Positions 11,621-40,051 of a DNA stretch of 64,000 nt are shown here, piece after piece (the stretch's first letter is position 1; each line of letters opens with the position of its first letter). Where the stretch lies: the NCBI GenBank assembly GCA_035485295.1, contig DATHOD010000174.1:3704-67703 (forward strand). The letters are read 5' to 3'. This DNA is from Bacteroidia bacterium. Lineage in GTDB: Bacteria > Bacteroidota > Bacteroidia > JABEUT01. Position numbers and translations under genes: made by a program. The notes under the pieces were generated by a model, which did not search any database, was not told the DNA's origin, and saw only the letters and a list, made by a program, of their open reading frames with translations.

Positions 11621-11676
11621 TGTAAGGAAATCATACAAAAATGTAATACTGTAAAGGTTATATAGCTTCACCTTTG
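11621..11676 (+). promoter_or_regulatory. bipartite module for the CsbD-like gene at 11714
   Basis: TGTAAGG 11621-11627, TGTAATA 11642-11648 (21 bp apart), N23, CTTTG 11672-11676; ATG at 11714. Confidence 0.55.
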
Positions 11677-15545: not shown

Positions 15546-15549
15546 AAAA

Positions 15550-16971
15550 ATGACTGAGAAGAAATACGATTATGGAATGATTGGATTGGGAACGATGGGA
15601 CGTAATCTTGTTTTCAATATAAATGATCATGGATATAGTGTTGCAGGGTTTGATAAGGACAATTCACAAGTGGAAACACTTAAAAACGAAGCAGCCAACC
15701 GTGAGATAATTGCCACTACCCAACTCGATGAATTTGTAAAGGGACTTAAAACCCCAAGAGTTATTATTATGCTTGTCCCAGCCGGGCGAATAGTAGATGA
15801 TGTTATACATGAATTAAAACCTCTTTTGTCAGAAAATGACTTATTGATCGATTGTGGTAATTCTCATTTTACCGATACAAACCGGAGAGATGATCTATTA
15901 GCAAAATCAGCTATTCACTTTATGGGTGTGGGTGTTTCAGGAGGCGAATCAGGTGCGCGTTATGGGCCCAGCATTATGCCTGGCGGTCCAAAGCAAGTAT
16001 ATGAACGCGTATCTAGTATATTTGAAGCTATTTCAGCTAAGGTGAAGGAAAGGCCTTGTGTGGCTTGGCTAGGAGAAGGCTCAGCAGGGCATTATGTCAA
16101 AATGGTACATAATGGAATAGAGTATGGGCTAATGCAACTTATATCAGAGTCATATCATTTGTTGAAGTCTGCCTGCAATATAGATAATGATGAACTGCAT
16201 AAAGTCTATTCAAAATGGAATGAAGGATTATTGCATTCATTTCTTATAGAGATTACGGCCGATATTTTTGCTCAAAAAGATGAGCTTACAAGTAACCACC
16301 TAATAGACATGATACTTGACAGTGCACATCAAAAAGGGACAGGTGGGTGGACTTCGGAGGATGCAATGAAGCTACAGGTGCCAATACCTGATATTGATAT
16401 TGCTGTTTCCATGCGCGATTTATCAGCTTATAAAAAGGAACGGGAAGTTGCCCAGCATAGACTTGGTGGCCCCGGAGCTAAATATAAAGGCAGTAAGGAT
16501 GAACTAGTTGCTTTACTGGAACGTGCACTTTATTTCTCTATGATCACTACGTATGCTCAAGGAATGGCTCTGTTGCATGTTGCATCGAAAGAATATAAAT
16601 ATGAGTTGAACCTGGAGAGCATAGCGGGTATTTGGAGAGGTGGGTGTATTATTCGAGCTTCTTTATTGGAAGATATCCGAATTGCTTTTTCTCAACATCC
16701 CGATTTATCTAACCTTTTACTAAACGATAAAATCTCCCACGAATTAAGACAGTCGCAACCCGGAATTCGTAAAGTTATTCAGGTAGCTGTTGAAACCGGG
16801 GTCCCGATACCTGCTATAATGGGCTCATTAGCTTATTATGACAGTTATAGGAGTGGTTGGTTACCCGCGAATTTAATACAGGCTCAACGTGATTATTTTG
16901 GGGCACATACATACGAACGTAACGACAGGGACGGTTCTTTTCATACACAATGGAATCAAACAAAAAAGTAG
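15550..16971 (+). CDS. gnd: 6-phosphogluconate dehydrogenase (decarboxylating)
   Basis: NAD(P)-binding [12 protein letters not shown]; conserved 6PGD core including [13 protein letters not shown]. Confidence 0.9.
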
Positions 16972-16972
16972 A

Positions 16973-18490
16973 ATGGAATCGAAGTTAAGAACAACGCCCA
17001 CAATTATTATTATTCTTGGCGCAACAGGGGACTTAGCATGGCGGAAGTTAATTCCCGCTATTTATAACTTATACCTTGATAGCTGGATACCGGATGAGTT
17101 CGCTGTAATTGGAATAGGTCGAAATAAGGTAAGCGAACAGGCCTTTACTAAACATTTACATGAGGGCGTAGACAAATTTTCACGAAGAGGCAAGGCAAAA
17201 AAAAGTGAATGGGACAAATTTGCAAAATGCCTATCCTACTCAAAGGGTGAGTTTAATGCCAGTTCAACCTATTCCAATATTGAGAAGCAAATAAAACAAA
17301 TTGAAAAGAAGTGGAAGTCAACTGCTAACCGCATTTTTTATATGGCTGTTCCGCCTAATTCATTTGAAGATATTGCAATTAGGATAGGGGAGTCATGCCT
17401 GGCAAAGAATAAGTTACAGAGCCGTATTGTAGTTGAAAAACCTTTTGGGCATGACCTTGAAAGTGCGAAGCATCTGAATAATCTGTTGCATACTATATTC
17501 GATGAATCACAGATCTATCGCATCGATCATTATCTGGGCAAAGAAACGGTTCAGAATATTTTGGCCTTTCGTTTTGCCAATGCACTGTTTGAGCCAACAT
17601 GGAACCGAAATTATATTGACAGTGTTCAAATAACCGTGTCGGAACAATTGGGAGTGGAGAACAGGGGGAATTATTATGAAACTGCCGGTGCCCTTCGTGA
17701 TATGATACAGAACCACATATTGCAACTTCTATGCCTTATTGCAATGGAGCCTCCGGTTTCTTTCGAAGCCGATGAAGTGCGAAACCGAAAGGTGGATGTG
17801 CTGAATGCTTTACGAAAGATTCGCCCAGAAGAAGTTCACCAATATGCCGTTCGTGGGCAATATGGAAAGGGCTGGATACAAGGAAAGAAAGTAATAGGAT
17901 ACAGGCAAGAACCTGATGTGAGCCCAACCTCGACTAAAGAAACATTTGCAGCTGTAAAGCTGTTTATAGATAATTGGAGATGGCAAGGGGTGCCTTTTTA
18001 TCTGCGAACAGGTAAACGCATGAATGAAACAATTTCTGTTATAACCATACAATTCAGGCCCGTACCCCATCAGTCATTTCCACCTGAAGCAACGGGTAAC
18101 TGGCAGCCAAACAGGTTGATTTTAAATATACAACCACATATGGGCATTCGTATGCGCTTCCAGGCAAAACGGCCGGGACTCGAAATGATTCTGTATCCTG
18201 TTGATATGCAATTTAACTATGATGAATCATATACTTCAGGAACGCCAGAAGCGTATGAAACGTTATTATTAGATATAATGGAAGGTGACTCAACTTTGTT
18301 TATGCGTGCCGATCAGGTAGAAGCAGCATGGAAAGCACTTATGCCTGTCATCAATTCATGGGAAACAAACCCTTCTGTCAATTTCCCTAATTACGAAGCA
18401 GGTATGCAGGGGCCTGAGGACGCTGAAGCGCTTATTGCAAAAAACGGACATAGTTGGGTGGTAATGCCAACGGAGAAGAATGGAGGCTAA
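16973..18490 (+). CDS. zwf: glucose-6-phosphate 1-dehydrogenase
   Basis: [29 protein letters not shown]. Start moved to the ATG at 16973, right after the gnd stop. The track ORF from 16889 overlaps gnd. Confidence 0.9.
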
Positions 18491-19223
18491 ATCAACATAC
18501 CAGCTTAAGGCTTTTCAGACTGTTGACGATCTCAACCAATCTGCTGCAAAACTTATTATAGAAATTGCAAATAAAGCTATTGCTGAAAGAGGGAAGTTTT
18601 CTATTTCACTTTCTGGTGGACAAACACCTATGGAATTATATTCACTCTTAGCGCAAACTCCTTTTTGTGAAGAACTTCCATGGAAGAATACAAGTGTTTT
18701 CTGGTGTGACGAACGTTGTGTTCCTGAAACAGACGTTAAGAATAATGCCCATCAGGCAAAATCAGTTCTTCTCGATAAGGTGAATATTCCCATATCTAAT
18801 ATCCATTCAGTTCAAGTGAATCTATCGCCTGCTGCTGCAGCCATTGAGTATGAAAAAGAAATAAGAAATTATTTCAGGGAAGAACCTATATGCTTCGATC
18901 TAATTCTACTTGGAGTAGGAGAGAATGGACATACAGCTTCTTTATTTCATGGTACAAAAGTAATAGATGAACATGCCGAAGGAGTAAGAGAAGTATATAT
19001 TGAAGATGAAAATATGTCTCGGATTACCATGACAGCAGCATTGATAAATAGAGCCCATAACATCCTTTTCCTGGTAACAGGAAAAAAGAAGGCAGAAATA
19101 ATGCAAGCAATATTCTCTGCTTCTGCATTGCCTGATAAGTACCCTGCGCAATTAATCAAACCTAGTAACGGAGAATTATTTTGGTTTGTTGATCAGGCAG
19201 CTGCGGCGCTTATTAGCAAATAA
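18480..19223 (+). CDS. pgl: 6-phosphogluconolactonase
   Basis: [11 protein letters not shown] and [11 protein letters not shown] motifs of the DevB/Pgl family. Confidence 0.85.
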
Positions 19224-19249: not shown

Positions 19250-22200
19250 TCAAATTAGGAGTTCTCTATTAGTACATAATACTATTCCTATTGAATGGCC
19301 TATACCATCATCTACCAGAGTAATAATACCGCTCTTTTCCTCGATACCATCTACACTTACAATAGTCTCTCCCACGCTTTCCTTTTGAGTTACTACAATA
19401 TTATAAGTGGTTTTCATGTAACGATAATGTATGGTGAACGATTCCCATTCGGTGGGAACACAGGGTGCTATCTTTAGTTTATTCCCTTCCTGCTGCAAGC
19501 CAAGAAATGATTGTGTAATAAGCTGATACATCCATCCTGCGGAGCCTGTATACCATGTCCAGCCGCCACGTCCTGCATGCGGTGCACATCCATATACATC
19601 TGCTGCCAATACGTATGATTCAACCTTATAAATTCCAATCTCATCAGCACTTTTGCCATGGTTAATAGGGTTTACCATATTCAAAAGCTCCCATACTTTT
19701 TTCTTATCACCTAATTTGGCAAAAGCCATTATCATCCATATAGCGGCATGGGTATATTGTCCACCATTCTCGCGAACTCCCGGCACATATCCTTTTATGT
19801 ATCCGGGGTTTAAATCAGATTTATCGAATGGTGGTTCAAGTAACTGAATTACCCGTGTGTCTTTCTGAACAAGATTTTTATAGGCAGCTTCCATTGCAAC
19901 ATTTACTTTCTTTTCCTCTCCTGCACCTGATATTACTGACCAACTTTGTGCTATAGAATCTATTTTGCATTCTTCATTCATAGATGACCCCAATGGAGTG
20001 CCATTATCAAACCATGCACGCTTGTACCATTGTCCGTCCCAGGCATTTGCGTCAATATTCTTTTTTAACTTCTCTGCTTCTTTTGTGCACAACTCAGCAA
20101 ATTGTGAATCTTTAAATAAGCCTGCAGTTTCTGAAAACTTAATCAGTACGTCGTAAAGAAAGAATGCCATCCATACACTTTCTCCTTTACCATTAATACC
20201 AATCTTATCATACCCATCATTCCAATCTCCTGCGCCAATTAACGGTAAACCATGTTCTCCATATCGGAAGCCATGTTTGATGGCAAGTACACAATGAGCG
20301 TAAAGCTTAGCTGAATTAAGAGATATGGCAGGTGTATCATAATACGATTCCACTCCGGTGCCTAATGGCCGACCTTCAAGGAAGGTTACGGTTTCATCAA
20401 GTACTCCAATGTCACCTGTATGCGATATATATAATGATGTTACAAGTGGTAGCCATAGAAAATCATCAGAACATCTGGTACGGGTACCCTGGCCAATAGG
20501 AGGGTGCCACCAATGTTGTACATCACCCTCTGGAAATTGACGTGATGCACAGAGCAATATCTGTTCACGTGCCAAATGTGGTTGAGTATGAAGTAATGAC
20601 AAGACATCTTGCAGTTGGTCACGGAATCCAAACGCTCCGCCTGATTGATAAAACCCGCTGCGTCCCCAAAGCCTCGATGAAAGTGTTTGATATGTCAGCC
20701 AACCGTTTGTAATAAGGTTAAGTGCCGCATCAGGCGTTTCAACTCGTACAGCACTAAGAGTATGTTTCCAGTAGTTCTTTATTCTTTCCAGTGAATCATG
20801 TGCAACATCACTACCTCTGAATTGTCTTGCAATTCTACTTGCGTCACCGGCATCTCTTCCTGCTCCAAGCCTGAAGATGACTTCTGTCTCTTCGCCATCG
20901 GCCAGGTCAAATGGAACCTGGATGGCGGCACATGGGTCAAGCGCTAGGCCAATCTTTCCGGAAAGTTTCACGCGAGACATAGCATCTGGGTTTTGTAAAG
21001 TGCCATTCCTGCCTATGAACTCGATGCGATCTGCCGTAAATGTTTTTTTCGTAAAATCCACGTCGAAAAATGCTACTCTGTTTGCAAACTCTTTATTATA
21101 CGGATTCTTTCCAAAAAGAGCGCCGCTATCAGGGTCAATTTCAGTATGAATATGCATGGCAGTCTTCGCCCTGTTATTGTCAAGAACCCATTCTATGTAC
21201 CCGGTAGCGGAAAGTTTACGAGGCCTGCCAGACTGATTTCGTATTTTAAATGCTATAAACTTAATGGGCGAATCGATATCGACATAAGTCGTCATTTCCG
21301 AGTATATACCATCTTCAATATGTTCGAAGGCGCTATATCCAAAACCATGGCGTGTTATGTAAGCTGAATCACCTCCTGTAGGAAGAAGGGTAGTAGACCA
21401 GAAAGTCCCATTTTCTTCATCACGCAAATAAAATGTTTCCCCACCTGTATCGCATACAGGGTCATCATTCCATGGCGTAAGTCTTAGTTCATGAGCATTT
21501 TCAGTCCATGTATAAGCCGAACCACTTTCTGAAATAACAGTTCCAAAATTTGGATTCGCTATCACATTAACCCAGGGTGCAGGAGTTTTGTTCTTACTAT
21601 CTATTCGAATAATATATTCACTGCCATCTGGAGAAAAGCCTCCAAGTCCATTAAAAAATAAAAGTCCTTCAGGCAGTGCAACATCTGTTACGATTGGCTT
21701 ATGTGGCTGTGTGGGTGAAATATATGGAATAATAACCTTTTGTAGCTGTTTACGCTGAATATGGTCAGCTAATGCTCCACCATTATCAGAAATATTAATG
21801 CGTGCCACTGTTTGAAATAAAATACGGTCCTCATTTGATATCTGGTCTGATGCTCTTACAAAAATCCCACCCGGGCGATCAGCTAATTCTGCTGGTACCA
21901 ATGATTGAATTTCATTTTGGAAAATCTGCCGGTAGCCACTATGTTCCTCATTCCAAATTACAAGATCAACAGCAAGCCCTTTCAAACGCCAATAGGAATG
22001 GGCCTGTATAAGCTGTTTCACCAATTGCATATTCGCCTGCTTTTCAATTTTCAACAGCACAATAGGCAGATCTCCTGAAATTGAATACCCCCACAAGCCT
22101 GATTGACCACGATGATTATTGATGAGTATAGATGGGTCAGCACGAAATGAAGGATTTGTAAATAGAATAGAACTTGCAAGTTGTCCATATAATTGTGCGT

Positions 22201-25200
22201 CGGCTTCAGTTGCATTTATTTGTCTTAATACTACCTGGCTATGTGTCCAGGCAAGTTCAAATACGCGGTCTTTATGGTGCTTATCCTGGTATTTATCAAT
22301 CAAGCCTTGACAAGTTTCCCGGGTTTCTGCAATGCCAATAATCATATCAAGTATAACTGTCTCTTCGGGGTTAAGTGTTATTTTATACCTAATGGCAACG
22401 ATTGGATCCAGTACTGAACCCTGATTTCCTGACAGTACACCAGCATTAGCCACAGCCTTGGGATTGACAGTAGTATTTCCTCTTCCAATAAATTCCATCC
22501 TATCGGTTTCATATGATACTTCTTCAGGTTCTTTCCCTTGCATTGTCATTAAATGGAAAAGCCAAGGAGATTGTTCATCAGTGGACCGCGGCCTGCGTGT
22601 GCAAAGAATAGTGTGTTTATTTGGTATTATTTCTGTTTGAACAAAGAGATTACTAAATGCAGGCTGCATAAGGTCTGAAGCGGCAGATGCCATTACCACT
22701 TCTGCATAACTTGTTATTTCCAATGTAGTGCGGGTAGGCGAATTATTAGTTATACTAACTCTTCTCATTTCTATATCATCTTCCGGCGATACAACAATTT
22801 CTGTATGTGTTTCTATATTGCTATGCTTAGTACGAAAGCTTACATGTCCTTGTGAAAATGCAGCTTCATAAGCATCACCTTTTTTCAATGTAGGCTGATG
22901 TGTATTTGACCAATATTCGCCACTCTTCAAGTCACGTATATAGCAAAACGTGCCCCAATTATCACAGGTGCCATCTTCCCTCCAGCGTGTAACGGCAAGA
23001 TCCTTCCACTTACTATAACCACCGCCTGCATTAGTTACCATTACATGGTAGTTCCCATTTGATAATAATTGAACTTCAGGGGTAGGTGTGTCAGGGGTAT
23101 TTATTACTCTGGTTTCGGTGCCACTGGCTACATAATTTACATCAGCTATGTCCGTGGTATGTGCAAAGAAGGAAGATGCTTTCGGTATTCTTTCCTGGAG
23201 CAATAGGAGAGTAGCCTTAAATTGAGGTTCCGCTTCAAATAGTTTTTGCATAGGTTTATCAAGAAGCAGGTAACCAAGTGATAGCAAACTCATTCCCTGG
23301 TGATGGGCCATGTAAGAATAAATTATAGCGCTGGACTGCCCATGCTGTAAGCGTGATGGAGTATAATCGACTGCTTCATAAAACCCATATTTTCCTTCAA
23401 ATCCTTTTTTGTAAAGCAGTTCCAGATTCTTACAAGCCTCCTCTGGCACCACCATAAGTGCTAGTGCAGAAGCATACGGGGCAATTACTGAATCTTCTTC
23501 CAGGCCACGCTTTAAGCCAAGGCCGGGAGCACCAAATGCACGATATTGATAATTGGAATTAGCATTCACCATATTATAGCCTGATTCTGATATTCCCCAA
23601 GGCAGGCTTTTCAGTTTTCCATATTCTATTTGCCAGTCAACAGCTGCTTTGCAGGTTTGGTCTAACAAAGTATTTTCATAAGATGGCATTACTAAAAGTG
23701 GCATAAGATATTCGAACATAGAGCCACTCCATGATAGAAGGATAGGTTGCCCGTCGACATTGGTGAGTAAGCGCCCTAATGCAAACCAGCTTTCTTCGGG
23801 TAGTTTGCCTTGTGCAATACCAATAAAGGTGCATAACCTCGATTCAGATGCAAGCAGGTCATAATAGCTTACATCGGTTTTATGTTCATGTACATTATAC
23901 CCAATACTGAATAATTTGCTCGATGTGTCAAATAGGAAATCCCATTCCATATCCGCAAGTTCATTGCATTGTTGAGCTAAACTTTCGGTAGCTGAAATTC
24001 TTTCTTGAGCTATATGTATTGAACTGGATAAGGAAGCCTGAAATGTTTCTAGCCATTCATTTTCAACTACTGTATTACTGCTATTTTGCTGAAGAGTTGT
24101 ATTGATTTGTAAACCCTGAGCTGCCTTTAATAATTCAACTAAGCTTGAATTTATTTTCATGGGAACTACGTCAGTGAACTTGGCTGGAACTTGAATTTGC
24201 CATGGTGTAAAAAATTGAATGTCAGTAGTTGCCTGCTTAAGTTGGTTTTCGAAAGTTTGATTCCACCAATGCGTTTCACTATCGGTAGAATTATTAAGCT
24301 TTTCAAATACGGGAGTAAAGTCTTTTGTAAGTACTTGCAGTTGGGCATCGACTTCATGGCTATTGACTAAAATGGAATTACAGATTGTGTCCAACTCTGT
24401 TTTAAATTCTTTCAGCAGGTCGATATCTTCCCCTTTTAGCGTACCAATAAGTACCAGCAGTGTATCTCTAAGCCCTTCAAATAAATTCACACTTAATATT
24501 CTTTGATAGGGTATGGCAAGCATTCCTTGTCTTAAAACCAGCAAGTGTGATGCAAGGTTCCCGCTATCAACTGTTGAAATATATTTAGGCAGCAATGGGT
24601 TTAATGTTTCAGTATCGTACCAATTATAAAAATGGCCTTTGTATCGCTCCATTTTATTCATCGTATCTATTGTTTCGGTAGTTCGTTCAATAAGCTCATT
24701 TGTAGAAATATATCCAAATTCACAAGCTACTATATTGGATAGTAGCGAGAGCCCTATGTTGGTAGGTGATGTTCTATGCGCTATTTGAGCCTCTGGTTGT
24801 TCCTGGAAATTATCAGGGGGCAGCCAATTATCTTTAAGTACTACGAAGCGTTCAAAGTAACTCCAAGTTTTCCTTGCAAGTTTTCTAAGAAAAGTATTTT
24901 GCTCCTCATCGAGTACTGCTATTTGTTTTGCCAGTGGCTTGCTTGTCCACCAAGTAATTAAAGGTGCAAGAAGCCAAAGCACTAAAATAGGGCCGGCAAT
25001 AATTAATTTTATTGGTGAGAAAATGGTAAGATAAATTACTACTGAAATTGTGATTAACGGCTCAACAAACATATAAGCATAGGATGCAATCAGGCTTGTC
25101 TGCTTAGCAGCTTCATCATTAGCGGAAGAATTCCATTCCAGAAGTTTTTTCCGGGTGATAAGTACTTTCCATAAGGTGCGGGCTATTGCTTTTAAGTTTG

Positions 25201-27940
25201 AAAATGCTTCGTAGGGAAGGCAGATTAAAGTAAATAAGGTTTTAATAAATACATCAGCAATATTGGTGGCCGAATTCCTTATGTGATGCAACAGGATAAC
25301 ATCTTTGGGTTTTCTGATCGTGTCCCAGATAGAAGTAACTATAATGGGAATGATAATAATACTTGAAACCAGTATTGTCCAGAAAAAGCACGAGCCCAAT
25401 GCAATCCAGCCGAGTAGGAGCAGGAGTGTTAGTGCTACAGGCACAAGACTTCGTCTTATGTTATCAAATATTTTCCAGCGAGATAATGCTGATATAGGAT
25501 TTTTATGCCACTGGTTTCCGGGACCGGGAACAAAAGGCAGGAACCATGAAAAAATCTGCCAGTCGCCGCGAATCCAACGTGAGTACCTTTTCATATCTGC
25601 ACGATAGGTGGTAGGATACTTTTCAAACAATTGAACATCGCTTAATAGGCCCGAACGCACATAACATCCTTCCAAAAGATCATGGCTAAGTATCCCATTT
25701 TCAGAAAACCTTCCTTCCAGCACTTTTATAAATATATCTACTTCATAAATTCCTTTTCCAATAAAAGAGCCTTCTCCAAAAAGATCCTGATAAACATCTG
25801 AAGATGCGCGGGTATATGGGTCAATTCCGGGTTCATTACCATGCAGGCGGGCATATACTGAACCGGTAATATCAGGTAGGCTAACTGTAACTCTAGGTTG
25901 AAGGATCCCATATCCCTTTGTTACTCTTTTCTTTTTTTCGTCATACCATGGACGATTTAATGGATGAGCCATTGCACCAATTAGTTTCCATGCTGAACCC
26001 AATGGAAGCTGGGTGTCGGCATCGAGTGTAATAACATACTTTATTGTTGGAAAAATAGATTGATCACCTATGATTAGCGAAAAACCTTCTTTTGCTCCAC
26101 CACGCAATAATGTATTTAACTCTGAAAGTTTTCCACGCTTTCTTTCATAACCCATCCATGCATTTTCCTGTGGGTTCCAACGTCGCGGACGATGAAAGAG
26201 AAAAAACAGATCATTCTTTTCTCTTCGGTATTTCTTATTTAATCCCTCAATTTTCTGTTGTGCAAAACTCAACAGTTCCTGATCATCGGGTAGTGTTTCT
26301 TGGGCAGCGTCATTAAAATCTGTTAATAGACCGAAATGCAAATTATTATTTCTATTTGCCAGGAAACGAACTTCTAAAGCTTCAACTAAGTTCTCTATAC
26401 CTTCTATATTAGAAATCATCACCGGTATCACGACTAACGTTTTAGCGCTAATTGGAATCTCATGCGAGAAGTCCATTCTGGGTAATAAGTGTGGCTTAAC
26501 CAGTAAGGTGAAAATGAAATTGACAACTGAAATAGCGAGTTGGCTTGTGCAAATAAGCGCAAGCAATATAATTGACAGTAGTATCCAACGGTGCTCTGAA
26601 CTCGCATGCACTCTTATTAAAATGCCAATACTGATAGAGAATGTAATTAACGTGATACAAGTTAGGTATACACTAAAGGCTCGCTTTTTCAGCACTCTTC
26701 TTATCCGCTGGGCAGCAGATAAGTGCATATTTGCACGTTGTTGGGTTTGCCGCATTCCATGGCCTATCAGGTAATACCCGACATGCTTTGTACGATCATC
26801 TTGCTCATTTACTAATACATTTTCATGCATTAATTCTATGGCAATACGCGCTACTTCGAACTCGGTTATTTTGCTTTTTTTCGCAATATTCTCAACCGAG
26901 TGGCGGTATTGATCACGTGTCGAGAAATCCATTAAGCCATAAACGCCATCATTATCTTCACGCAGAGTTTGCTCTACTATGCTATGATTTTCAACAAAAT
27001 CGCGCCAATCCATTGCACCAAGCAATCGAAGACTGCCGATACTATTACTCATAGAAACCTGGTCTGTCGACTGTTTTTGAATTTCAGCATTTATCAGCTC
27101 GGTACTTGTTAGCCCGCTTTCAGATAATTGCTGCTCTATCCAGTTAAGCGATAGTGCCAGGTCAGGCCCTTTTCCACGAAGTTGCCGTGTTAGCTCAGAA
27201 ACAAATGCACTAACCATAGGTGGCTCAGAACGTGCCATATCTGAAATAACCAATATCAGGTCCTTGGGATTTTTTTCAGCGGTCTCAACCATTTGTCTTG
27301 CCCAGTAATCAGCAAGGTTTCTATCTACACGGTCAATAGCTATTCTTGCGGAAACCCGCCTGAGATTCTCAATAAGTGCAAGGCGGAGCATAATAGGAAT
27401 AGCCCATAATTCACCTAACTGCAAATTTGTAACAGATTGATAAGCTTGCATAAAGCTGCTAAGGCTTTCAATATCTATTCGTCCGTCGGTATGAGAAATT
27501 ATCTGCAGAACAATATCATAAATACGCGTAAATCCTTTCGATGCTCCATCCAATAGTTGAGGTAGATCTTCACTATAGTCTTTTGGGAAGTGTGTTTTAG
27601 CGGTCCGAATATGTTCTTCTATCAGGTAGAAGTTATCTATCAGCCATTCGCCTGCAGGTGTAATTTCATGTTTTCTCTTTATTGAGCCGGTAAGAAGCTT
27701 GCGCACTTCATGTAAAACCGCCTCATTATCTGCAAGCCGTTTGAGTAGATGTTCCTTTGCCGGTTTTGTACTTAGTTTGTGTGACCCGGCAAGAGTTTTC
27801 CCAAATCTTTCCATCTGCTCCGAACTAAACAACTCACCTCTTAATGGTTCCTCATTCAAGTAACGGAGCCTTGAGTTATTCGCCCTGAAAAAGTCCCTCA
27901 TATTGGATATGAGTTCGTGTGCTGCCGGTATTAATTTCAT
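19250..27940 (-). CDS. cyclic beta-1,2-glucan synthase (NdvB/Cgs/ChvB-like), 2896 aa
   Basis: Giant size. Multi-TM N-terminal region, central GT domain (DADTQLP…QPRV) and C-terminal GH94 glucan-phosphorylase-like domain, as in NdvB. Confidence 0.8.
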   Translation of the reverse strand: MKLIPAAHELISNMRDFFRANNSRLRYLNEEPLRGELFSSEQMERFGKTLAGSHKLSTKPAKEHLLKRLADNEAVLHEVRKLLTGSIKRKHEITPAGEWLIDNFYLIEEHIRTAKTHFPKDYSEDLPQLLDGASKGFTRIYDIVLQIISHTDGRIDIESLSSFMQAYQSVTNLQLGELWAIPIMLRLALIENLRRVSARIAIDRVDRNLADYWARQMVETAEKNPKDLILVISDMARSEPPMVSAFVSELTRQLRGKGPDLALSLNWIEQQLSESGLTSTELINAEIQKQSTDQVSMSNSIGSLRLLGAMDWRDFVENHSIVEQTLREDNDGVYGLMDFSTRDQYRHSVENIAKKSKITEFEVARIAIELMHENVLVNEQDDRTKHVGYYLIGHGMRQTQQRANMHLSAAQRIRRVLKKRAFSVYLTCITLITFSISIGILIRVHASSEHRWILLSIILLALICTSQLAISVVNFIFTLLVKPHLLPRMDFSHEIPISAKTLVVIPVMISNIEGIENLVEALEVRFLANRNNNLHFGLLTDFNDAAQETLPDDQELLSFAQQKIEGLNKKYRREKNDLFFLFHRPRRWNPQENAWMGYERKRGKLSELNTLLRGGAKEGFSLIIGDQSIFPTIKYVITLDADTQLPLGSAWKLIGAMAHPLNRPWYDEKKKRVTKGYGILQPRVTVSLPDITGSVYARLHGNEPGIDPYTRASSDVYQDLFGEGSFIGKGIYEVDIFIKVLEGRFSENGILSHDLLEGCYVRSGLLSDVQLFEKYPTTYRADMKRYSRWIRGDWQIFSWFLPFVPGPGNQWHKNPISALSRWKIFDNIRRSLVPVALTLLLLLGWIALGSCFFWTILVSSIIIIPIIVTSIWDTIRKPKDVILLHHIRNSATNIADVFIKTLFTLICLPYEAFSNLKAIARTLWKVLITRKKLLEWNSSANDEAAKQTSLIASYAYMFVEPLITISVVIYLTIFSPIKLIIAGPILVLWLLAPLITWWTSKPLAKQIAVLDEEQNTFLRKLARKTWSYFERFVVLKDNWLPPDNFQEQPEAQIAHRTSPTNIGLSLLSNIVACEFGYISTNELIERTTETIDTMNKMERYKGHFYNWYDTETLNPLLPKYISTVDSGNLASHLLVLRQGMLAIPYQRILSVNLFEGLRDTLLVLIGTLKGEDIDLLKEFKTELDTICNSILVNSHEVDAQLQVLTKDFTPVFEKLNNSTDSETHWWNQTFENQLKQATTDIQFFTPWQIQVPAKFTDVVPMKINSSLVELLKAAQGLQINTTLQQNSSNTVVENEWLETFQASLSSSIHIAQERISATESLAQQCNELADMEWDFLFDTSSKLFSIGYNVHEHKTDVSYYDLLASESRLCTFIGIAQGKLPEESWFALGRLLTNVDGQPILLSWSGSMFEYLMPLLVMPSYENTLLDQTCKAAVDWQIEYGKLKSLPWGISESGYNMVNANSNYQYRAFGAPGLGLKRGLEEDSVIAPYASALALMVVPEEACKNLELLYKKGFEGKYGFYEAVDYTPSRLQHGQSSAIIYSYMAHHQGMSLLSLGYLLLDKPMQKLFEAEPQFKATLLLLQERIPKASSFFAHTTDIADVNYVASGTETRVINTPDTPTPEVQLLSNGNYHVMVTNAGGGYSKWKDLAVTRWREDGTCDNWGTFCYIRDLKSGEYWSNTHQPTLKKGDAYEAAFSQGHVSFRTKHSNIETHTEIVVSPEDDIEMRRVSITNNSPTRTTLEITSYAEVVMASAASDLMQPAFSNLFVQTEIIPNKHTILCTRRPRSTDEQSPWLFHLMTMQGKEPEEVSYETDRMEFIGRGNTTVNPKAVANAGVLSGNQGSVLDPIVAIRYKITLNPEETVILDMIIGIAETRETCQGLIDKYQDKHHKDRVFELAWTHSQVVLRQINATEADAQLYGQLASSILFTNPSFRADPSILINNHRGQSGLWGYSISGDLPIVLLKIEKQANMQLVKQLIQAHSYWRLKGLAVDLVIWNEEHSGYRQIFQNEIQSLVPAELADRPGGIFVRASDQISNEDRILFQTVARINISDNGGALADHIQRKQLQKVIIPYISPTQPHKPIVTDVALPEGLLFFNGLGGFSPDGSEYIIRIDSKNKTPAPWVNVIANPNFGTVISESGSAYTWTENAHELRLTPWNDDPVCDTGGETFYLRDEENGTFWSTTLLPTGGDSAYITRHGFGYSAFEHIEDGIYSEMTTYVDIDSPIKFIAFKIRNQSGRPRKLSATGYIEWVLDNNRAKTAMHIHTEIDPDSGALFGKNPYNKEFANRVAFFDVDFTKKTFTADRIEFIGRNGTLQNPDAMSRVKLSGKIGLALDPCAAIQVPFDLADGEETEVIFRLGAGRDAGDASRIARQFRGSDVAHDSLERIKNYWKHTLSAVRVETPDAALNLITNGWLTYQTLSSRLWGRSGFYQSGGAFGFRDQLQDVLSLLHTQPHLAREQILLCASRQFPEGDVQHWWHPPIGQGTRTRCSDDFLWLPLVTSLYISHTGDIGVLDETVTFLEGRPLGTGVESYYDTPAISLNSAKLYAHCVLAIKHGFRYGEHGLPLIGAGDWNDGYDKIGINGKGESVWMAFFLYDVLIKFSETAGLFKDSQFAELCTKEAEKLKKNIDANAWDGQWYKRAWFDNGTPLGSSMNEECKIDSIAQSWSVISGAGEEKKVNVAMEAAYKNLVQKDTRVIQLLEPPFDKSDLNPGYIKGYVPGVRENGGQYTHAAIWMIMAFAKLGDKKKVWELLNMVNPINHGKSADEIGIYKVESYVLAADVYGCAPHAGRGGWTWYTGSAGWMYQLITQSFLGLQQEGNKLKIAPCVPTEWESFTIHYRYMKTTYNIVVTQKESVGETIVSVDGIEEKSGIITLVDDGIGHSIGIVLCTNRELLI

Positions 27941-29595
27941 ACTGCGTTTTCTTTAATGCTTAAAGCAGTATTGACAATATCTGTAGCTTCTTTGATGATC
28001 TGTCTTAAGTGAGATCTTTCTAAAAAGCTTTCTGCATATATTTTATAAATATCCTCCGTTCCTGAAGGGCGTGCTGCAAACCAGCCATTCTCTGTACCCA
28101 CTTTCACACCACCAATCGAGGCGTTATTAGCAGGTGCAGTAGTAAATATTTTTTTTATTTCTTCTCCCGCTAAATCTTTGTGTGTGATCTGTTCAGAAGA
28201 AAGCGTTCTCAGTTTTTCTTTTTCCTGAGGTGTTGCTTTAGTTTCAATACGTTCGTAAATAGGGGTACCAAGTTCTTTTGTGAGTTCATTATAGAGCATA
28301 CCCGGGTCGCGGCCCATTTTTGCAGTCATTTCTGCTGATAGTAATGCAGGTATAAATCCATCCTTATCTGTTGTCCATACACTTCCATCTAACCGGGAAA
28401 ACGATGCACCAGCGCTTTCTTCTCCTCCAAAGCAAAGCGATGAGTTAAGCAAACCATCTACAAACCACTTAAAGCCAACCGGAACCTCATAAAGCTGCCT
28501 TCCAAATTTTGCCGCAATACGGTCTATCAGTTGGGTGGTAACAACCGTTTTACCTACTGCAGCTGTTTTATTCCACTTAGGGCGATTTTGAAGCAGGTAT
28601 GAAATGGCAACAGATAAATAATTGTTAGGATTTAAAAGTCCTTCACTTCTTGTAATAATTCCATGCCTATCATGGTCTGTATCACAGGCAAAAGAAATAT
28701 CAAAACGGTCTTTCATTTTGATTAACCTTTGCATAGCATAGGAAGAAGAGGGATCCATCCGAATCTGCCCATCCCAATCCCTTGTCATGAAACCGAAAGT
28801 AGGATCGACTGTTTTATTTACAACTGTTAAGTCTAATTTGTATCGTTCAGCAATGGGCTCCCAATAATGAACTCCGGCACCACCCAGAGGGTCAACACCA
28901 ATACTAATATTTGAATTACGAATTACATCCATATCGATAATATTACCAAGGTCATTAACATATGAATTCAAATAGTCGTAGTAGTGCGTTGTAGATAAGC
29001 GAAGTGCTTTGTCAAATGAAATCCTTTTTACAGATTGAAGATTATTCTCAAGAAATTCATTTGCTTTTGATTCAATCCAGTCTGTTACCTCTGTTCCTGC
29101 AGGCCCGCCATTGGGAGGATTGTATTTAAACCCACCATCATCAGGCGGATTGTGTGAAGGTGTAATTACTATACCATCGGCCATGCCTGTACTACGCCTC
29201 TGATTATATTTTAAAATAGCATGTGAAATAACAGGAGTAGGGGTGAATTCATCATCTTCAGTGATCATTACCTCTACATTATTTGCAGCCAATATTTCCA
29301 TTGTAGTGGCAAAGGCAGGTGCTGAAAGCGCGTGGGTATCGAAGCCCAAATATAACGGGCCATCAATCTTTTGTTCTTTACGGTATAAGCAAATGGCTTG
29401 TGTAATAGCCACAATATGATTTTCATTAAATGAATTTGTGAATGAAGACCCTCTATGCCCGGAAGTTCCGAACACGATACGTTCAGCCGAAACAGTTGGA
29501 TCAGGTTTTCCAGTATAATATGCAGATACAAGCCTTGGTATGTTTACCAATATCTCCGGTATAGCCGGTTTGCCTGCAAAAGGACTCACTATCAT
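27937..29595 (-). CDS. pgm: phosphoglucomutase (alpha-D-glucose phosphate-specific)
   Basis: Active-site loop TPSHNPPDDGGFKYNPPNGGPA; metal site FACDTDHDR. Confidence 0.9.
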   Translation of the reverse strand: MIVSPFAGKPAIPEILVNIPRLVSAYYTGKPDPTVSAERIVFGTSGHRGSSFTNSFNENHIVAITQAICLYRKEQKIDGPLYLGFDTHALSAPAFATTMEILAANNVEVMITEDDEFTPTPVISHAILKYNQRRSTGMADGIVITPSHNPPDDGGFKYNPPNGGPAGTEVTDWIESKANEFLENNLQSVKRISFDKALRLSTTHYYDYLNSYVNDLGNIIDMDVIRNSNISIGVDPLGGAGVHYWEPIAERYKLDLTVVNKTVDPTFGFMTRDWDGQIRMDPSSSYAMQRLIKMKDRFDISFACDTDHDRHGIITRSEGLLNPNNYLSVAISYLLQNRPKWNKTAAVGKTVVTTQLIDRIAAKFGRQLYEVPVGFKWFVDGLLNSSLCFGGEESAGASFSRLDGSVWTTDKDGFIPALLSAEMTAKMGRDPGMLYNELTKELGTPIYERIETKATPQEKEKLRTLSSEQITHKDLAGEEIKKIFTTAPANNASIGGVKVGTENGWFAARPSGTEDIYKIYAESFLERSHLRQIIKEATDIVNTALSIKENAV

Positions 29596-29597
29596 AT

Positions 29598-30074
29598 TTA
29601 AATTGCGTTTCGCGTACTTTCTAGTTCAGCTACTTTAGCCAAACGCCTGGTATGTTTTTCTGTATTCCTAAACTTTGCTTCAAGAAATATCTTAGTCAAT
29701 TCCCAGCCAAGGGCCAAATCAATCACCCTGCCACCCAGGCATATCATATTCATGTCGTCGTCTTCAACACCTTGTTGTGCTGAAAACTTTTCATGGATAA
29801 GGCTCGCTCTTATACCTGTAACTTTATTTGCTGCAATACAAGCTCCAACACCACTTCCACAAACAGCAATACCTTTAAGTACATCACCTGTAGCAATTGC
29901 CCTTGCAAGTGGAATCACGTAATCAGGATAATCATCATCAGGGTGTAAGCCACTAGCACCAAAATCAATTGTCTGGTAATCGGTTTCATTTAGCTTTTTT
30001 ACTAAATATTCTTTCAATTCAAATCCTGCGTGATCTGCCGCAATTCCAATTTTAAATTTCCCAATACTATTCAT
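29598..30074 (-). CDS. rpiB: ribose-5-phosphate isomerase B
   Basis: [17 protein letters not shown]…CGSGVG, typical RpiB/LacAB. Confidence 0.9.
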
Positions 30075-32157
30075 TACTATTCCTTTTTAATAAGGCCTGA
30101 GCTTGCTTGCATATATTTTCAACTGTAAATCCTTTTTTATCCATCATGGTTTTTCCGGGAGCCGAAGCTCCGAATGTGTCGATACCTATTACTATTCCTT
30201 TATCGCCTGTATATTTATGCCAGCCTTGTGTAACTCCGGCTTCTATAGCAATTCTTTTATTAATCGAAGGAGGAAGTATTATATCTCGGTATTCAGTAGC
30301 CTGTGCTTCGAATAGTTCCCAGCTTGGCATTGAAACAATTCGTGCAGGAATATTATGCTTCATTAATTCTTGTTGCGCATCTACTATCAAACCGACTTCA
30401 GAACCGCTTGCTATTAATATCAATTCTGGTTTAACATCAGGAATATCTGATAATATATAAGCCCCGAAGCGAAGACCTTCCGCAGAAGCATATTGTTTCC
30501 TGTCAACAGTGGGTACGTCCTGTCGGGAAAGAATTAATGCCACCGGCGCTTTTTTTGATTCAATAGCAATGCGCCATGCCTCGGCAGTTTCATTTGCATC
30601 ACAGGGCCGTATTACAATCAAACGAGGGATTGCCCTAAGACATGCAAGATGTTCTATGGGTTGATGGGTTGGCCCGTCTTCACCCATAGCGATACTATCG
30701 TGGGTGAAAACAAAAACTGTATTTAATTCCATTAATGCCGCAAGTCGAATAGCAGGGCGCATATAATCTGAGAAAGTCAGGAATGTGGCACAGAATGGGA
30801 TAATACCTCCATGAGCAGCCATTCCATTTGAAATTGATGCCATTCCATGCTCACGAACGCCAAACTGTAAATTGCGGCCGGCATAGCTCCATCCACCTCC
30901 CGCTGACCCTTGAAGGTCACCTACGGCCATGGAAGGGTTTTCAAAGTTTCCGGCATCTATAAGTTCTGTGAAAGTAGATGTGTTAAGGTCGGCAGAGCCA
31001 CCAATGAAGCCAGGGAGTAAAGGACTAAAAGCCTGCATTATTTTGCCAGAAGCCACGCGTGTAGCTATGCCCTTGCTATCAGCCGGAAATTTAGGAATAG
31101 TGGCATCCAAGTAAATAGAAGGCTCTCCTTTTATTAGACTGAATAGCTCTTGAGCAAGTTCAGGATATTTTTGTTCGTATTCTGAGAAGTGCTTTTTCCA
31201 TTTATCTTCTAAATGCTTTCCGGTTTCAACTGACTTGCGAAAGTTAATCAGGGCATCTTTAGGAATCAGAAATGATGGGGTCAAGGGCCAGCCAAGTTTT
31301 GCCTTGGTTAACTTTACTTCTTCTTCTCCTAACGGAGAACCATGAGCAGCGCATGTATCTTGTTTGTTAGGTGAGCCGTAACCAATATGAGTTCTTACTA
31401 TTATCAGCGAAGGACGCTCTTTTTCTTCCTGAGCAGCTTTAATCGCTTTCTCAATGGATTCTAGGTCATTACCATCCTCAATAGATGCCACGTGCCATCC
31501 GTATGCTTCAAATCGCTTCGCATGATCTTCAGTAAATGTAACGGGAGTTGCAGAGGCAAGTGTAATATGATTATTGTCGTACAGATAAATCAGTTTGCCA
31601 AGTTTTAAATGACCAGCAAGCGGAGCTGCTTCTGCAGATACCCCTTCCATTAGGTCACCATCGCTTACTAAGCCATAGGTGTAATGATTGATGATTTCAA
31701 AACTGGGCTTATTGTATCGTGCAGCCAAATATGCTTCGGCAATTGCCATACCCACACCATTTGCAAATCCCTGGCCGAGAGGACCGGTTGTTGTTTCAAC
31801 GCCGGGCGTTATTCCACGCTCAGGATGGCCAGGTGTTTTACTTCCCCATTGCCGAAACTGTTTAATATCATCAAGTGATAGATCATATCCAGTCAAGTGC
31901 AACAAGCTATATAACAGCATTGAACCATGGCCCGCAGACAATACAAACCTATCGCGGTTAAACCAATGTGGATTTGTTGGATTATGCTGCAGGAACCTTG
32001 TCCATAGAACGTATGCCATGGGTGCAGCACCTAACGGCAAGCCAGGGTGGCCGCTATTAGCCTTTTGAACAGCATCTATTGACAGAAAACGTATTGTATT
32101 TACAGAAAGGGTATCCAATTCCAATTGAGGATGAATTGGTTCACTTAGTTTGTTCAT
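30067..32157 (-). CDS. tkt: transketolase
   Basis: [27 protein letters not shown]…GDGDLMEG…[15 protein letters not shown]. Confidence 0.95.
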
Positions 32158-32176
32158 TAGGGTATTTTATTAATAC

Positions 32177-32244
32177 GTAAAATAGCCGCTATTTGCCAAA
32201 GCAAGTGTTACACAAGTTTTAGAATATATTATACAATTCACACA
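32177..32244 (-). promoter_or_regulatory. bipartite module (degenerate box) upstream of the tkt-rpiB-pgm-cyclic glucan synthase operon
   Basis: Minus-strand reading gives TGTGTGAATTGTATAA, 21 bp, TGTAACA, N23, CTATTTTAC. The distal 16-mer differs at 2 positions from TGTGTGAATAGTGTAA, found at 33111 and 54721. Confidence 0.45.
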
Positions 32245-32380
32245 TTAGTGTAAAATTCAGAATGTTGAAACAAAATGAATAAATTTGAAACCTCTAGTGA
32301 CTGAAAATTGTTTCAGCTTTGTATTACCTAAGCAAAATGAAATTATGTATTATGTTGCTTTTCAAGTAAATGAATGTTCT

Positions 32381-32995: not shown

Positions 32996-33110
32996 ATGGC
33001 CTCAACAATTATAATATATCACCAAAACCTTAGAATTTCCTTCCCTGAGTGTTATGCGTTCATTACCATTCAAGAATATTCTTCAATTCTGGTAAAATAA
33101 GCGTAACTTG

Positions 33111-33175
33111 TGTGAATAGTGTAAGTTAATTCCATCGCAGTATAACACTTCCTTGTTATAAGCTTATCACTTTTG
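33111..33175 (+). promoter_or_regulatory. bipartite module for the small gene at 33213
   Basis: TGTGTGAATAGTGTAAGT (distal TGTAAGT 33120-33126), TATAACA 33141-33147 (21 bp apart), N22, CTTTTG 33170-33175. Confidence 0.55.
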
Positions 33176-33458: not shown

Positions 33459-33478
33459 ATGAAAGGAAGTGTGAATTA

Positions 33479-33534
33479 TGTAACTATTCCCCAAAATGAT
33501 GTAATAGTTAACAAAACAGAATAAAGGAATTTTG
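33479..33534 (+). promoter_or_regulatory. bipartite module in front of the AraC-family regulator gene
   Basis: TGTAACT 33479-33485, TGTAATA 33500-33506 (21 bp apart), N23, TTTTG 33530-33534. Confidence 0.55.
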
Positions 33535-33579: not shown

Positions 33580-34140
33580 ATGGTAAGTAACCGCTGCAAG
33601 ATGGCGGTGAAAGAAGAATTAAATAAACTTGGCCTCCATTATGTAATTGTAGATTTAGGTGAAGTTGAAGTAATGGAAGACCTTTCTGTGTTGGAACTGG
33701 AACAGTTGAGAGCTGGTCTACAGGTATCGGGGCTTGAATTAATGGATGATAAGAAAGGTGTGATGATTGAAAAAATTAAAAACACCATTATTGAAATGAT
33801 ACATCATGCAGATGAGGCTATGAAAGTCAATTTATCGGACTACCTGAGCGAGAAACTGAAACACGACTATACTTACCTGGCAAACTTGTTTTCTGAAGTG
33901 CAAGGGATTACTATAGCCCAGTTTGTTGCTGCTCATAAAATAGAGAGGATTAAAGAACTGATAATGTATGATGAATTAAATATTACTGAAATTGCCTGGA
34001 AGATGAATTACAGCAGTGTAGCCCATTTATCTAATCAATTTAAGAAAGCAACCGGCTTTACTCCATCACAGTTTAAGCAATTGAAGGATAAGAAGAGAAT
34101 GCCAATTGAAGAAATTGGAAATTTAAACGGTACGAAATAA
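33580..34140 (+). CDS. AraC/XylS-family transcriptional regulator (short N-terminal domain plus C-terminal HTH_18)
   Basis: C-terminal two-HTH AraC signature …LANLFSEVQGITIAQFVAAHKIERIKELIM…ITEIAWKMNYSSVAHLSNQFKKATGFTPSQFKQ. The track ORF starts at a TTG (33559); ATG at 33580 or 33601 is more likely. Confidence 0.8.
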   Translation: MVSNRCKMAVKEELNKLGLHYVIVDLGEVEVMEDLSVLELEQLRAGLQVSGLELMDDKKGVMIEKIKNTIIEMIHHADEAMKVNLSDYLSEKLKHDYTYLANLFSEVQGITIAQFVAAHKIERIKELIMYDELNITEIAWKMNYSSVAHLSNQFKKATGFTPSQFKQLKDKKRMPIEEIGNLNGTK

Positions 34141-38541: not shown

Positions 38542-38597
38542 CAAAGATGCCTCCATAAAACCTGGCGGGCATTACATCTATCTATCAAAAGGTTACA
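38542..38597 (-). promoter_or_regulatory. bipartite module for the 38251 gene (minus strand)
   Basis: On the plus strand: CAAAG 38542-38546, CATTACA 38570-38576, GGTTACA 38591-38597; 21 and 23 nt spacings. Confidence 0.55.
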
Positions 38598-38650
38598 TCT
38601 TTCCTATTTGGGCAGAAGAATATAATCGTAAGCGCAAATCAAGATAAATG

Positions 38651-38706
38651 TGTAAGGTTATTCTGTGTATGTGTAACACTCTAAAGTGTTGTATGCACAA
38701 TCTTTG
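38651..38706 (+). promoter_or_regulatory. bipartite module for the SHOCT/Usp operon
   Basis: TGTAAGG 38651-38657, TGTAACA 38672-38678, N23, CTTTG 38702-38706. The spacer carries the palindrome AACACTCTAAAGTGTT. Confidence 0.55.
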
Positions 38707-40024: not shown

Positions 40025-40051
40025 ATAGATCTAAGCTTGGGATGTGTTATA

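Follow-up and report, generated by a model that had tools for sequence, protein, structure and literature searches.

The genes tkt, rpiB, pgm and cgs of a Bacteroidota genome, the last of which encodes a synthase of cyclic beta-1,2-glucan (Cgs), lie behind a conserved promoter module of activator type. Promoters of this class mark a stress island and apparently also a regulon that spans the phylum and in which cgs and the pentose phosphate pathway (PPP) are repeatedly included. The DNA studied was a 64,000-nt stretch from a Bacteroidia bacterium (JABEUT01; assembly GCA_035485295.1, contig DATHOD010000174.1, positions 3,704-67,703 of the forward strand), hereafter called the window; L-numbers denote related loci that were compared with it. 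Our best overall explanation, to which we assign a probability of roughly 0.65, is that the four genes would form a single operon with an activator-dependent module promoter, that an AraC-family protein encoded in the window would be the regulator, and that the output would be of the general-stress type. An earlier note on this DNA had proposed that the cgs operon is wired into a shared promoter module. This regulatory finding is real, and it is larger than the note had envisaged.

The module has a rigid architecture (ATGTGTGAATnATGTAAC, 15-16 nt, TrTAACA, 20 nt, cAccTTTG) and occurs in 21 copies in the window (Table 1). The copies were counted with a 76-nt position weight matrix (PWM) at a threshold of at least 20 bits; 12 of them had been used for training and the other nine were newly found, and none of 20 shuffled controls reached 12 bits. 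The score distribution was bimodal, with just two more window positions between 5 and 20 bits. The reference 16-mer TGTGTGAATAGTGTAA has exact copies at 33109 and 54721 and gave nine window matches with at most three mismatches, as compared to 0.95 expected and at most four in 100 shuffles. The logo of 188 non-identical sites reads A-t-g-T-G-T-G-A-A-T-n-a-T-r-T-A-A-c, 15-16 nt, T-r-T-A-A-C-a, exactly 20 nt, c-A-c-c-T-T-T-g. The half-site TrTAAC thus appears at logo positions 9-14 and 30-35, a 21-bp period, and the -7 box with the consensus cAccTTTG has A in 92% and TT in 99% of the sites. All 21 window copies face an open reading frame (ORF) that starts with ATG, in 20 cases at 20-49 nt from the -7 box and in one case at 228 nt, which indicates that they are promoters and not dispersed repeats. 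The motif was not found described in a literature search.

Three other interpretations of the module were considered and rejected. A mobile repeat, such as a miniature inverted-repeat transposable element, does not agree with the limitation of conservation to the motif positions and the fixed register with the start codons. A structured RNA or known RNA family was dismissed because Rfam, at gathering thresholds, gave a tRNA-Arg alone in the window. Finally, a GTGAAT/ATTCAC inverted repeat resembled hairpin covariation in three window copies, but the 188-site logo has no conserved partner and the resemblance was taken as chance.

Housekeeping promoters of Bacteroidota have the consensus TTTG at -33 and TAnnTTTG at -7. 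Like them, the module has a -7 element (nAnnTTTG) whose distance to the start codons is as expected, but the first position of this element is usually C rather than T. The -33 TTTG is absent, and its position is taken in all copies (logo) by TrTAACA at the fixed 20-nt spacing, which is consistent with activator dependence. We propose that the tkt operon promoter would be dependent on an activator and read by the housekeeping sigma factor. In this promoter, the -7 box would be CTATTTTA (of the nAnnTTTG type), TGTAACA exactly 20 nt upstream would replace the usual -33 element, and a second TGTAA, extended to ATGTGTGAAT, would lie one 21-bp period further upstream. The same module would drive at least 20 other transcription units of the window.

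The layout previously given for the tkt promoter, from 32177 to 32244 with CTATTTTAC (32185-32177, minus strand) as the last element, was correct in its outer coordinates but not in its spacers, which are 16 and 20 nt rather than 21 and 23 nt; the figure of 21 is the TGTAA-to-TGTAA period. The distal 16-mer, TGTGTGAATTGTATAA (32244-32229, minus strand), does differ at two positions from TGTGTGAATAGTGTAA, the 16-mer of two other modules.

Phylogenetic footprinting of the tkt upstream regions supported the wiring of the cgs operon into the module. A module lies directly upstream of tkt also in L083 (37 bits), L084 (59 bits), L168 (23 bits) and L169 (40 bits). In the alignment of the five upstream regions the invariant columns are almost all inside the module elements, whereas the flanking intergenic DNA is not conserved. 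Other operons with cgs are preceded by the module as well, namely gnd-zwf-pgm-cgs in L170 (54 bits), Band7-orf-cgs in L085 (36 bits) and lipoprotein-orf-cgs in L026, a Bacteroidales metagenome-assembled genome whose Cgs is 56% identical (48 bits). The module was found before cgs operons in eight of approximately 17 Bacteroidota cgs loci with usable upstream sequence. Its recurrence in four operon layouts is strong evidence that membership of cgs in the module regulon has been kept through rearrangements. It is extremely improbable, and already disfavoured, that the motif at tkt is a chance or non-functional similarity in front of a constitutive housekeeping PPP operon. Such a view could draw on the housekeeping functions of tkt and rpiB and on the fact that no other copy of the set has a weaker -7 box. 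It would have to explain a score of 56 bits when no shuffle reached 12 bits, the exact register to the ATG, why the module alone is conserved among five orthologous upstream regions and why it returns before cgs where the operon is laid out in three other ways.

In 30 of 236 module promoters a further element was observed, the palindrome GTGAAAATTnATTCAC, usually starting 4 or 7 nt after the -7 box and hence where the transcript is predicted to begin, or close by. Its positions in the window are 40112-40135, 53899-53920, 56595-56615 and 58597-58617 on the plus strand and 11487-11465 and 10429-10408 on the minus strand, and it was also seen in L084, L087, L089, L106, L115, L149, L163 and further loci. 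Pairing is retained in variants, among them GTAATAATTCAGTTAC and ACGAAAATTCATTCGT, including changes compatible with U-G pairs, which suggests a 5'-terminal RNA hairpin or an operator. The tkt promoter does not contain the palindrome.

The identities and positions of tkt, rpiB, pgm and cgs in the earlier note agreed with the ORF coordinates and the Pfam matches, and so did their placement in one operon. The junctions are tight, with an 8-nt overlap between tkt and rpiB, a 2-nt gap between rpiB and pgm and a 4-nt overlap between pgm and the start of cgs. Intrinsic terminators inside the operon were considered and rejected, since the 10 terminator-like sites found are at the chance level (9.9 expected), and the PWM scan gave no module copy internal to the four genes. 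The order tkt-rpiB-pgm-cgs is kept in L083, L084 and L169, where Cgs is 74-78% identical and the operon is convergent with pgl-zwf-gnd-(HAD)-(tal)pgi, and in L168, where Cgs is 72% identical and pgl alone is convergent. The pgm-cgs pair was seen in L003, L016, L083, L084, L167, L168, L169, L170 and L171, in layouts that include gnd-zwf-pgm-cgs (L170), an all co-directional PPP-pgm-cgs cluster (L016) and a cluster in which pgm and cgs are accompanied by a GH144-like beta-1,2-glucanase, a sugar transporter and phosphoketolase (L167). We propose that tkt-rpiB-pgm-cgs would be a single transcription unit. In L083 (5751-8333), tkt and rpiB are fused into one ORF of 860 aa with transketolase and LacAB_rpiB domains.

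The oxidative PPP operon (tal-pgi fusion, HAD, gnd, zwf, pgl) faces the cgs operon, and its gene content and orientation were as described in the earlier note. The statement that it lacks the module did not hold, as a copy scoring 44.7 bits precedes it. The module would probably drive this operon too, by way of the small leader ORF orf67. The arrangement of module, homologous small ORF and tal-pgi is also present in L083, with module, small ORF and pgi in L084 and module, Dps and tal-pgi in L169. In the window, orf67 is separated from tal-pgi by a terminator-like hairpin, which is only 40 nt away from the tal-pgi ATG, so that read-through would be needed, and tal-pgi is probably reached from the module in this way. 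The small ORF has the signature GNW...L..LKKHF...P.KNELL, seen in the window (11714-11917, plus strand) and between module and tal-pgi in L083 (25953-26162, minus strand), and had no Pfam match. A possibly related small ORF lies between module and cgs in L026 (936-1241, plus strand).

The 2,896-aa protein had been identified as a synthase of the NdvB/Cgs type, and the domain content, structural alignments and catalytic residues all agreed with this. In Pfam it contains two GH94 supersandwich domains, a GH94 catalytic domain (Glyco_hydro_94, 384 bits, model positions 1-420 of 420), a glucoamylase-like domain and a weak GT2 match (GT2_3, 23.4 bits against a cutoff of 27). Of the domains named in the HMM check that had been suggested (GT84 plus GH94), Pfam recovered GH94, with GT2 below threshold and the glycosyltransferase (GT) motifs visible in the alignment. 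The alignment to the electron cryo-microscopy (cryo-EM) chain of Agrobacterium tumefaciens Cgs, 8rf0_A, is full-length and collinear (2000.5 bits). In the N-terminal 1320 aa, residues 34-1139 align to 26-1118 of 8rf0 (740 bits; transmembrane (TM)/GT region), and in the C-terminal part residues 1317-2865 align to 1250-2818. The cyclization domain structure 8wy1_A aligned with 444-452 bits. Conserved GT features are the DAD motif in LDADT (D640, D642), the tyrosine of GIDPY (Y709), HDLLEG and RWIRGDWQ, which align with the A. tumefaciens motifs, and D754 is also among the conserved catalytic residues; Y709 is the equivalent of Y694, the priming tyrosine of the Agrobacterium enzyme (PMC11842490). 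In the GH189 domain, E1366, E1410, E1452 and H1546/H1547 align with E1356, E1400, E1442 and H1536/H1537 of TiCGS, where these residues comprise the nucleophile Glu, the acid/base Glu and a His-His pair (PMC10834661). The aspartate of DWNDG (about D2575) aligns with D2528, the GH94 catalytic Asp of the A. tumefaciens enzyme (PMC10901819). Because the catalytic residues are all conserved, the protein is identified from its sequence as a complete, bona fide Cgs/NdvB-type synthase, with cyclic beta-1,2-glucan as the predicted product.

The same note had called such an enzyme unusual in Bacteroidota, which proved incorrect. At least 120 protein clusters share at least 68% identity with it; those listed span 68-100%, and the named ones among them are Bacteroidia, Hanamia, Ginsengibacter, Cyclobacteriaceae and Cytophagaceae, with one exception labelled Eubacteriaceae. 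At least 599 species-representative genomes, spread over many phyla, encode relatives. Of the 80 genome loci listed, those of Bacteroidota have 64-78% identity to the window Cgs and those of other phyla at most 59%, and the GC content of cgs (0.39-0.43) is like that of the flanking PPP genes. Recent horizontal acquisition was rejected on these two grounds. Judged by these comparisons, Cgs is common in Bacteroidota and the cgs gene by itself is ordinary. The enzyme resembles A. tumefaciens Cgs/NdvB in its length class, in its collinear TM/GT, GH189 cyclization and GH94 phosphorylase domains and in the retention of every experimentally defined catalytic residue (PMC10901819, PMC10834661, PMC11842490). 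It differs in belonging to a Bacteroidota clade, in its location in a PPP/pgm operon behind a stress-type promoter, and in having no ChvA/NdvA exporter gene nearby. No description of a Bacteroidota Cgs was found in the literature search. We know of no characterized member of this clade.

The GH94 domain releases glucose-1-phosphate (G1P), and pgm could therefore equally well recycle glucan into the PPP. The linkage of pgm, PPP and cgs would in that case reflect glucan turnover, in which phosphorolysis by GH94 yields G1P, converted by Pgm to glucose-6-phosphate (G6P) and used by zwf and gnd for NADPH, with the glucan as a carbon or redox reserve mobilized under stress. The intact GH94 domain with its catalytic Asp, the constancy of pgm as the most frequent neighbour of cgs (including gnd-zwf-pgm-cgs in L170), the glucanase-containing cluster of L167 and the absence of galU from the operon are all consistent with turnover. 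However, the Pgm reaction is reversible, so that G1P supply fits equally well, and the GH94 domain of the Agrobacterium enzyme has its role in length control and is not required for function (PMC10901819). We regard turnover as possible, if rather unlikely; it concerns the direction of flux and is compatible with the regulatory model.

The candidate regulator is an AraC-family protein of 186 aa, encoded at the head of an operon with a hybrid PAS histidine kinase and a REC-only response regulator. The complete trio is also present in L084 and araC with the response regulator in L083, in both cases preceded by the module, and in L093 tkt directly follows araC and the genes for the kinase and response regulator. 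We surveyed 76 metagenomic loci with enough upstream DNA, drawn from at least 544 AraC relatives. In 68 of these, a module, usually with a near-perfect ATGTGTGAATTATGTAAC, lies approximately 112 nt before the araC ATG on the same strand. The upstream region of araC in L113 (640-734) holds 4.5 tandem copies of the 21-nt unit AATTGTGTAACTTTTATAAGT, a natural expansion of the half-site. More than 8000 AraC homologues were found. The best 120 are 73-100% identical across Bacteroidota orders, with 73-92% for those attributed to Crocinitomicaceae, Cytophaga, Saprospirales and Prolixibacteraceae, and the second helix-turn-helix (HTH) is nearly invariant, as is the DNA motif. In the AlphaFold 2 model (pLDDT 80), a small alpha-beta-beta-alpha N-terminal domain is followed by a two-HTH AraC DNA-binding domain, which matched the DNA-binding domains of AraT, YesN, MarA, SoxS and AdpA in the PDB. 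NCBIfam gave just sub-threshold matches to generic AraC equivalogs, and the literature search returned no description of the regulator. Because the module precedes its gene in 68 of the 76 loci and the gene heads the operon with the kinase and response regulator, this AraC is most likely the activator of the module and apparently autoregulated; its binding to the module is what we infer from these arrangements.

Two half-sites at a 21-bp period, with the proximal one abutting the -35 region, are the classical layout of AraC, XylS and RhaS. We propose that the AraC protein would bind as two protomers to the 21-bp direct repeats, in a class II arrangement, and that its activity or level would be set by positive autoregulation together with the kinase and REC-only regulator of its own operon. 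The features in common with class II systems (AraC at I1-I2, XylS at Pm, RhaS/RhaR, MelR; MarA/SoxS/Rob) are the two-HTH domain, direct repeats of 21-bp period whose proximal copy adjoins the -35 region or takes its place, and the apparent autoregulation. In contrast to them, the protein is very small, with an N-terminal domain of approximately 50 residues without assigned function instead of a ligand-binding cupin. Other differences are the histidine kinase and REC-only regulator in its operon, the Bacteroidota -7 promoter type, the large stress-related regulon and the 73-92% identity across orders. A second AraC subtype near cgs loci reads S[FY]KLHYSS in place of AWKMNYSS in the second HTH, and in L083 it has a module variant of its own, with GTAAAT for GTGAAT.

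The module might instead be recognized by the product of a gene located elsewhere, be it a different transcription factor or an alternative sigma factor with TGTAACA as its -35 element. The araC operon would then be a highly conserved member of the regulon, the wiring of cgs would hold and the regulator would be misassigned. Points in favour are that binding of AraC to the module is inferred, that the spacing from TGTAACA to the -7 box is a rigid 20 nt, as in -35/-10 recognition by sigma factors, that LytTR regulators typically use direct repeats spaced by 21 bp next to the -35 region, and that an autoregulation-like placement is no proof of identity. On the other hand, the downstream box is the standard housekeeping nAnnTTTG, the araC promoter has the best and most invariant module copies (68 of 76 loci), and the HTH region of AraC is almost invariant, like the motif. 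The 64-kb island contains neither a sigma factor nor a LytTR gene; no sigma-factor domain was found in any scanned window ORF of at least about 90 aa. Recognition by LytTR, suggested by the repeats, and an ECF or alternative sigma promoter were accordingly rejected as candidates in the window, the former for lack of a LytTR domain and the latter for lack of a sigma gene and the presence of a housekeeping-type -7 box. We consider a different recognition factor unlikely and retain AraC as the candidate.

The module targets of the window (Table 1) are joined in related loci by YtxH, an M48 peptidase and an alpha/beta hydrolase, and by Dps in L169; the Dps gene of the window itself is not preceded by a module. 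Near cgs in L084 and in the P0022 locus, CsbD genes were seen, by proximity only and not as module targets. Since the targets include Usp, ice-binding proteins, YtxH and M48 peptidase, the regulon looks like one of general stress and less like one dedicated to osmotic stress. The well-known general stress regulons have similar contents: RpoS of E. coli controls talA-tktB, otsBA, dps and osmY, the SigB regulon of Bacillus includes csbD, ytxH, dps and gsiB, and EcfG is the counterpart in Alphaproteobacteria. The window and its relatives share with these regulons Usp, YtxH, OmpA-like proteins and Dps (the last in one related locus), as well as the combination of PPP enzymes with a protective glucose polymer or sugar. 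They differ in that no alternative sigma factor is evident and that the module promoters retain a -7 box of the housekeeping type and seem to rely on the activator site instead. In the proposed output, a stress trigger would jointly raise PPP capacity, interconversion of G6P and G1P, and cyclic glucan synthesis, and the co-induction of PPP enzymes, pgm and Cgs would yield NADPH, pentoses and a protective or osmotically active glucan.

In the earlier note, the regulon was interpreted as specifically responding to osmotic or envelope stress, with Cgs supplying osmoregulated periplasmic glucan (OPG). The synthesis of OPG classically increases at low osmolarity, yet several of the module targets are of the high-salt or desiccation type. 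The content of Usp, ice-binding, YtxH and M48 peptidase targets, the cytoplasmic-type PAS sensor of the kinase and the lack of a glucan exporter in the window also argue against this interpretation. It is consistent with the many envelope targets (OmpA-like, beta-barrel, PAP2, Pmp3), with the sll1863-type salt-stress protein among the targets, with a DUF748/AsmA-like gene in the island whose homologue is a module target in L143, and with the requirement of Agrobacterium for cyclic beta-1,2-glucans during hypo-osmotic growth (PMC10901819). On balance, a function specific to osmotic or envelope stress appears quite unlikely, and a general stress output is preferred.

Several observations weigh against our explanation as a whole. 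In about half of the Bacteroidota cgs loci (L166, L171, L003-L006, L038, L074) no module was found before cgs. The -7 box of the tkt promoter is weak also in orthologues (CTAyTTTA), and basal and induced behaviour may therefore differ. The hairpin after orf67 makes the coupling of the oxidative operon to the module uncertain. The window contains neither galU nor a ChvA/NdvA-type glucan exporter, its ABC genes being MlaE, MlaF and MlaD-like only, which bears on the supply of UDP-glucose and on periplasmic localization; an exporter gene could lie outside the window. A paralogous AraC subtype (62-65% identity; L083, L167, L169) bears on the assignment of paralogues to sites, and araC could be merely the most conserved target of another factor.

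Table 1. Genes of the two facing operons, the araC operon and the promoter module copies in the window.
Feature	Position	Strand	Details
Module before sll1863-family stress protein (9954-10394)	10433..10500	-	40.8 bits
Module before OmpA-family protein (10670-11458)	11491..11558	-	39.3 bits
Module before orf67 and tal-pgi operon	11609..11676	+	44.7 bits; 37 nt upstream of orf67
orf67, small conserved leader ORF	11714..11917	+	67 aa; between module and tal-pgi; homologue in L083
Terminator-like hairpin	11965-11988		between orf67 and tal-pgi
tal-pgi fusion, HAD, gnd, zwf, pgl	12028..19223	+	Pfam; convergent with cgs, stop codons 26 nt apart
cgs, synthase of cyclic beta-1,2-glucan, NdvB/ChvB type	19250..27940	-	2896 aa; Pfam, 8rf0 and 8wy1 alignments
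pgm, phosphoglucomutase	27937..29595	-	Pfam PGM_PMM I-IV
rpiB, ribose-5-phosphate isomerase B	29598..30074	-	Pfam LacAB_rpiB, 152 bits
tkt, transketolase, first gene of operon	30067..32157	-	Pfam Transketolase_N, Transket_pyr, Transketolase_C
Module of tkt operon	32178..32245	-	56.0 bits; ATGTGTGAATTGTATAA (32245-32229), 16 nt, TGTAACA (32212-32206), 20 nt, CTATTTTA (32185-32178), 20 nt to ATG
Module before 81-aa ORF (33213-33458)	33108..33175	+	49.9 bits
Module before araC operon	33467..33534	+	54.4 bits
AraC-family regulator	33580..34140	+	186 aa; Pfam HTH_18 and HTH_AraC
Hybrid PAS histidine kinase	34160-36379	+	Pfam; co-operonic with araC
REC-only response regulator	36376-36804	+	Pfam; co-operonic with araC
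Module before 89-aa ORF (ATG at 38520)	38542..38609	-	25.8 bits
Module before 82-aa ORF (38740-38988), then tandem Usp (39077-40024)	38639..38706	+	20.7 bits
Module before 151-aa secreted protein (ATG at 40148)	40040..40107	+	34.7 bits
Module before PAP2 phosphatase (40899-41561)	41590..41657	-	42.0 bits
Module before 67-aa ORF (41770-41973), then HAD/LNS2-like protein (42093-42524)	41664..41731	+	34.5 bits
Module before 83-aa secreted Lys/Thr-rich protein (43574-43825)	43480..43547	+	49.7 bits
Module before 750-aa protein sorted by type IX secretion system (T9SS; ATG at 44011)	43906..43973	+	21.9 bits
Module before OmpA/beta-barrel protein (46452-48482)	46345..46412	+	47.7 bits
Module before 84-aa membrane ORF (52992-53246)	52891..52958	+	27.9 bits
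Module before 96-aa ORF (53343-53633)	53236..53303	+	28.3 bits
Module before ice-binding-like protein (53934-54689)	53827..53894	+	38.4 bits
Module before ice-binding-like T9SS protein (54837-56459)	54720..54787	+	60.3 bits
Module before outer-membrane beta-barrel protein (ATG at 56630)	56523..56590	+	26.6 bits
Module before Pmp3-domain lipoprotein (57460-58041)	57347..57414	+	51.3 bits
Module before AI-2E family transporter (58821-59924)	58525..58592	+	27.0 bits; 228 nt before gene, least certain assignment

Relatives of the 96-aa ORF at 53343-53633 are the commonest module targets other than araC in related loci (15 sites). The adjacent ice-binding-like (DUF3494) genes at 53934-56459 (plus strand), one of them T9SS-sorted, each have a strong module copy of their own, which hints that cold or freezing is part of the response, and an orthologous pair arrangement is found in L084 (25724-27892). 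Three receiver proteins without a recognizable output domain are encoded on the plus strand (36376-36804, 49387-49779 and 52244-52894); the 216-aa one gave a weak REC match only, one follows Dps and another a DUF748/AsmA-like gene. A SiaC-family regulatory phosphoprotein adjoins a DUF6272 protein at 6536-7477 (minus strand), and these neighbours, encoded where the stress island has its edge, are possibly a pair of the partner-switching kind. A 16-mer match with three mismatches at 7165, inside the DUF6272 ORF, is probably due to chance.

Divergent from tkt is a gene for a bacterial SET-domain protein of 144 aa (32497-32931, plus strand; Pfam SET, 50 bits), the position of which is conserved in L001 and L002. 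Between this gene and the tkt promoter, GGTTCGATTCCTATCGTAGCCAC at 32381-32403 (plus strand) resembles part of a tRNA, namely the T-arm and the 3' end of the acceptor. ARAGORN called no tRNA at these positions, and in L083 a tRNA-like sequence that by eye is apparently intact lies upstream of tkt. The element may be the remnant of a tRNA or the scar of an old integration event.

We are aware of no defined regulator of a general stress response in Bacteroidota, and none was found in the literature search. As a tentative generalization, for which we would give slightly less than even odds, environmental Bacteroidota may share, throughout the phylum, a general stress response with no alternative sigma factor involved. 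It would be run by a small, very highly conserved and autoregulated AraC-type activator under a PAS hybrid kinase and a REC-only regulator, acting at housekeeping-sigma promoters with the ATGTGTGAAT-TGTAAC / TGTAACA module, and cyclic beta-1,2-glucan synthesis and the whole PPP would be recurrent core outputs. The locus yields a 68-bp promoter signature, a candidate regulator with its sensor kinase, a list of targets and a metabolic output in the form of the PPP enzymes and Cgs, and these four make the question of general stress in Bacteroidota directly testable in cultured relatives. It also extends the biology of cyclic beta-1,2-glucans past the Proteobacteria associated with hosts to Bacteroidota that live freely in soil and freshwater, and connects the predicted glucan with stress physiology.

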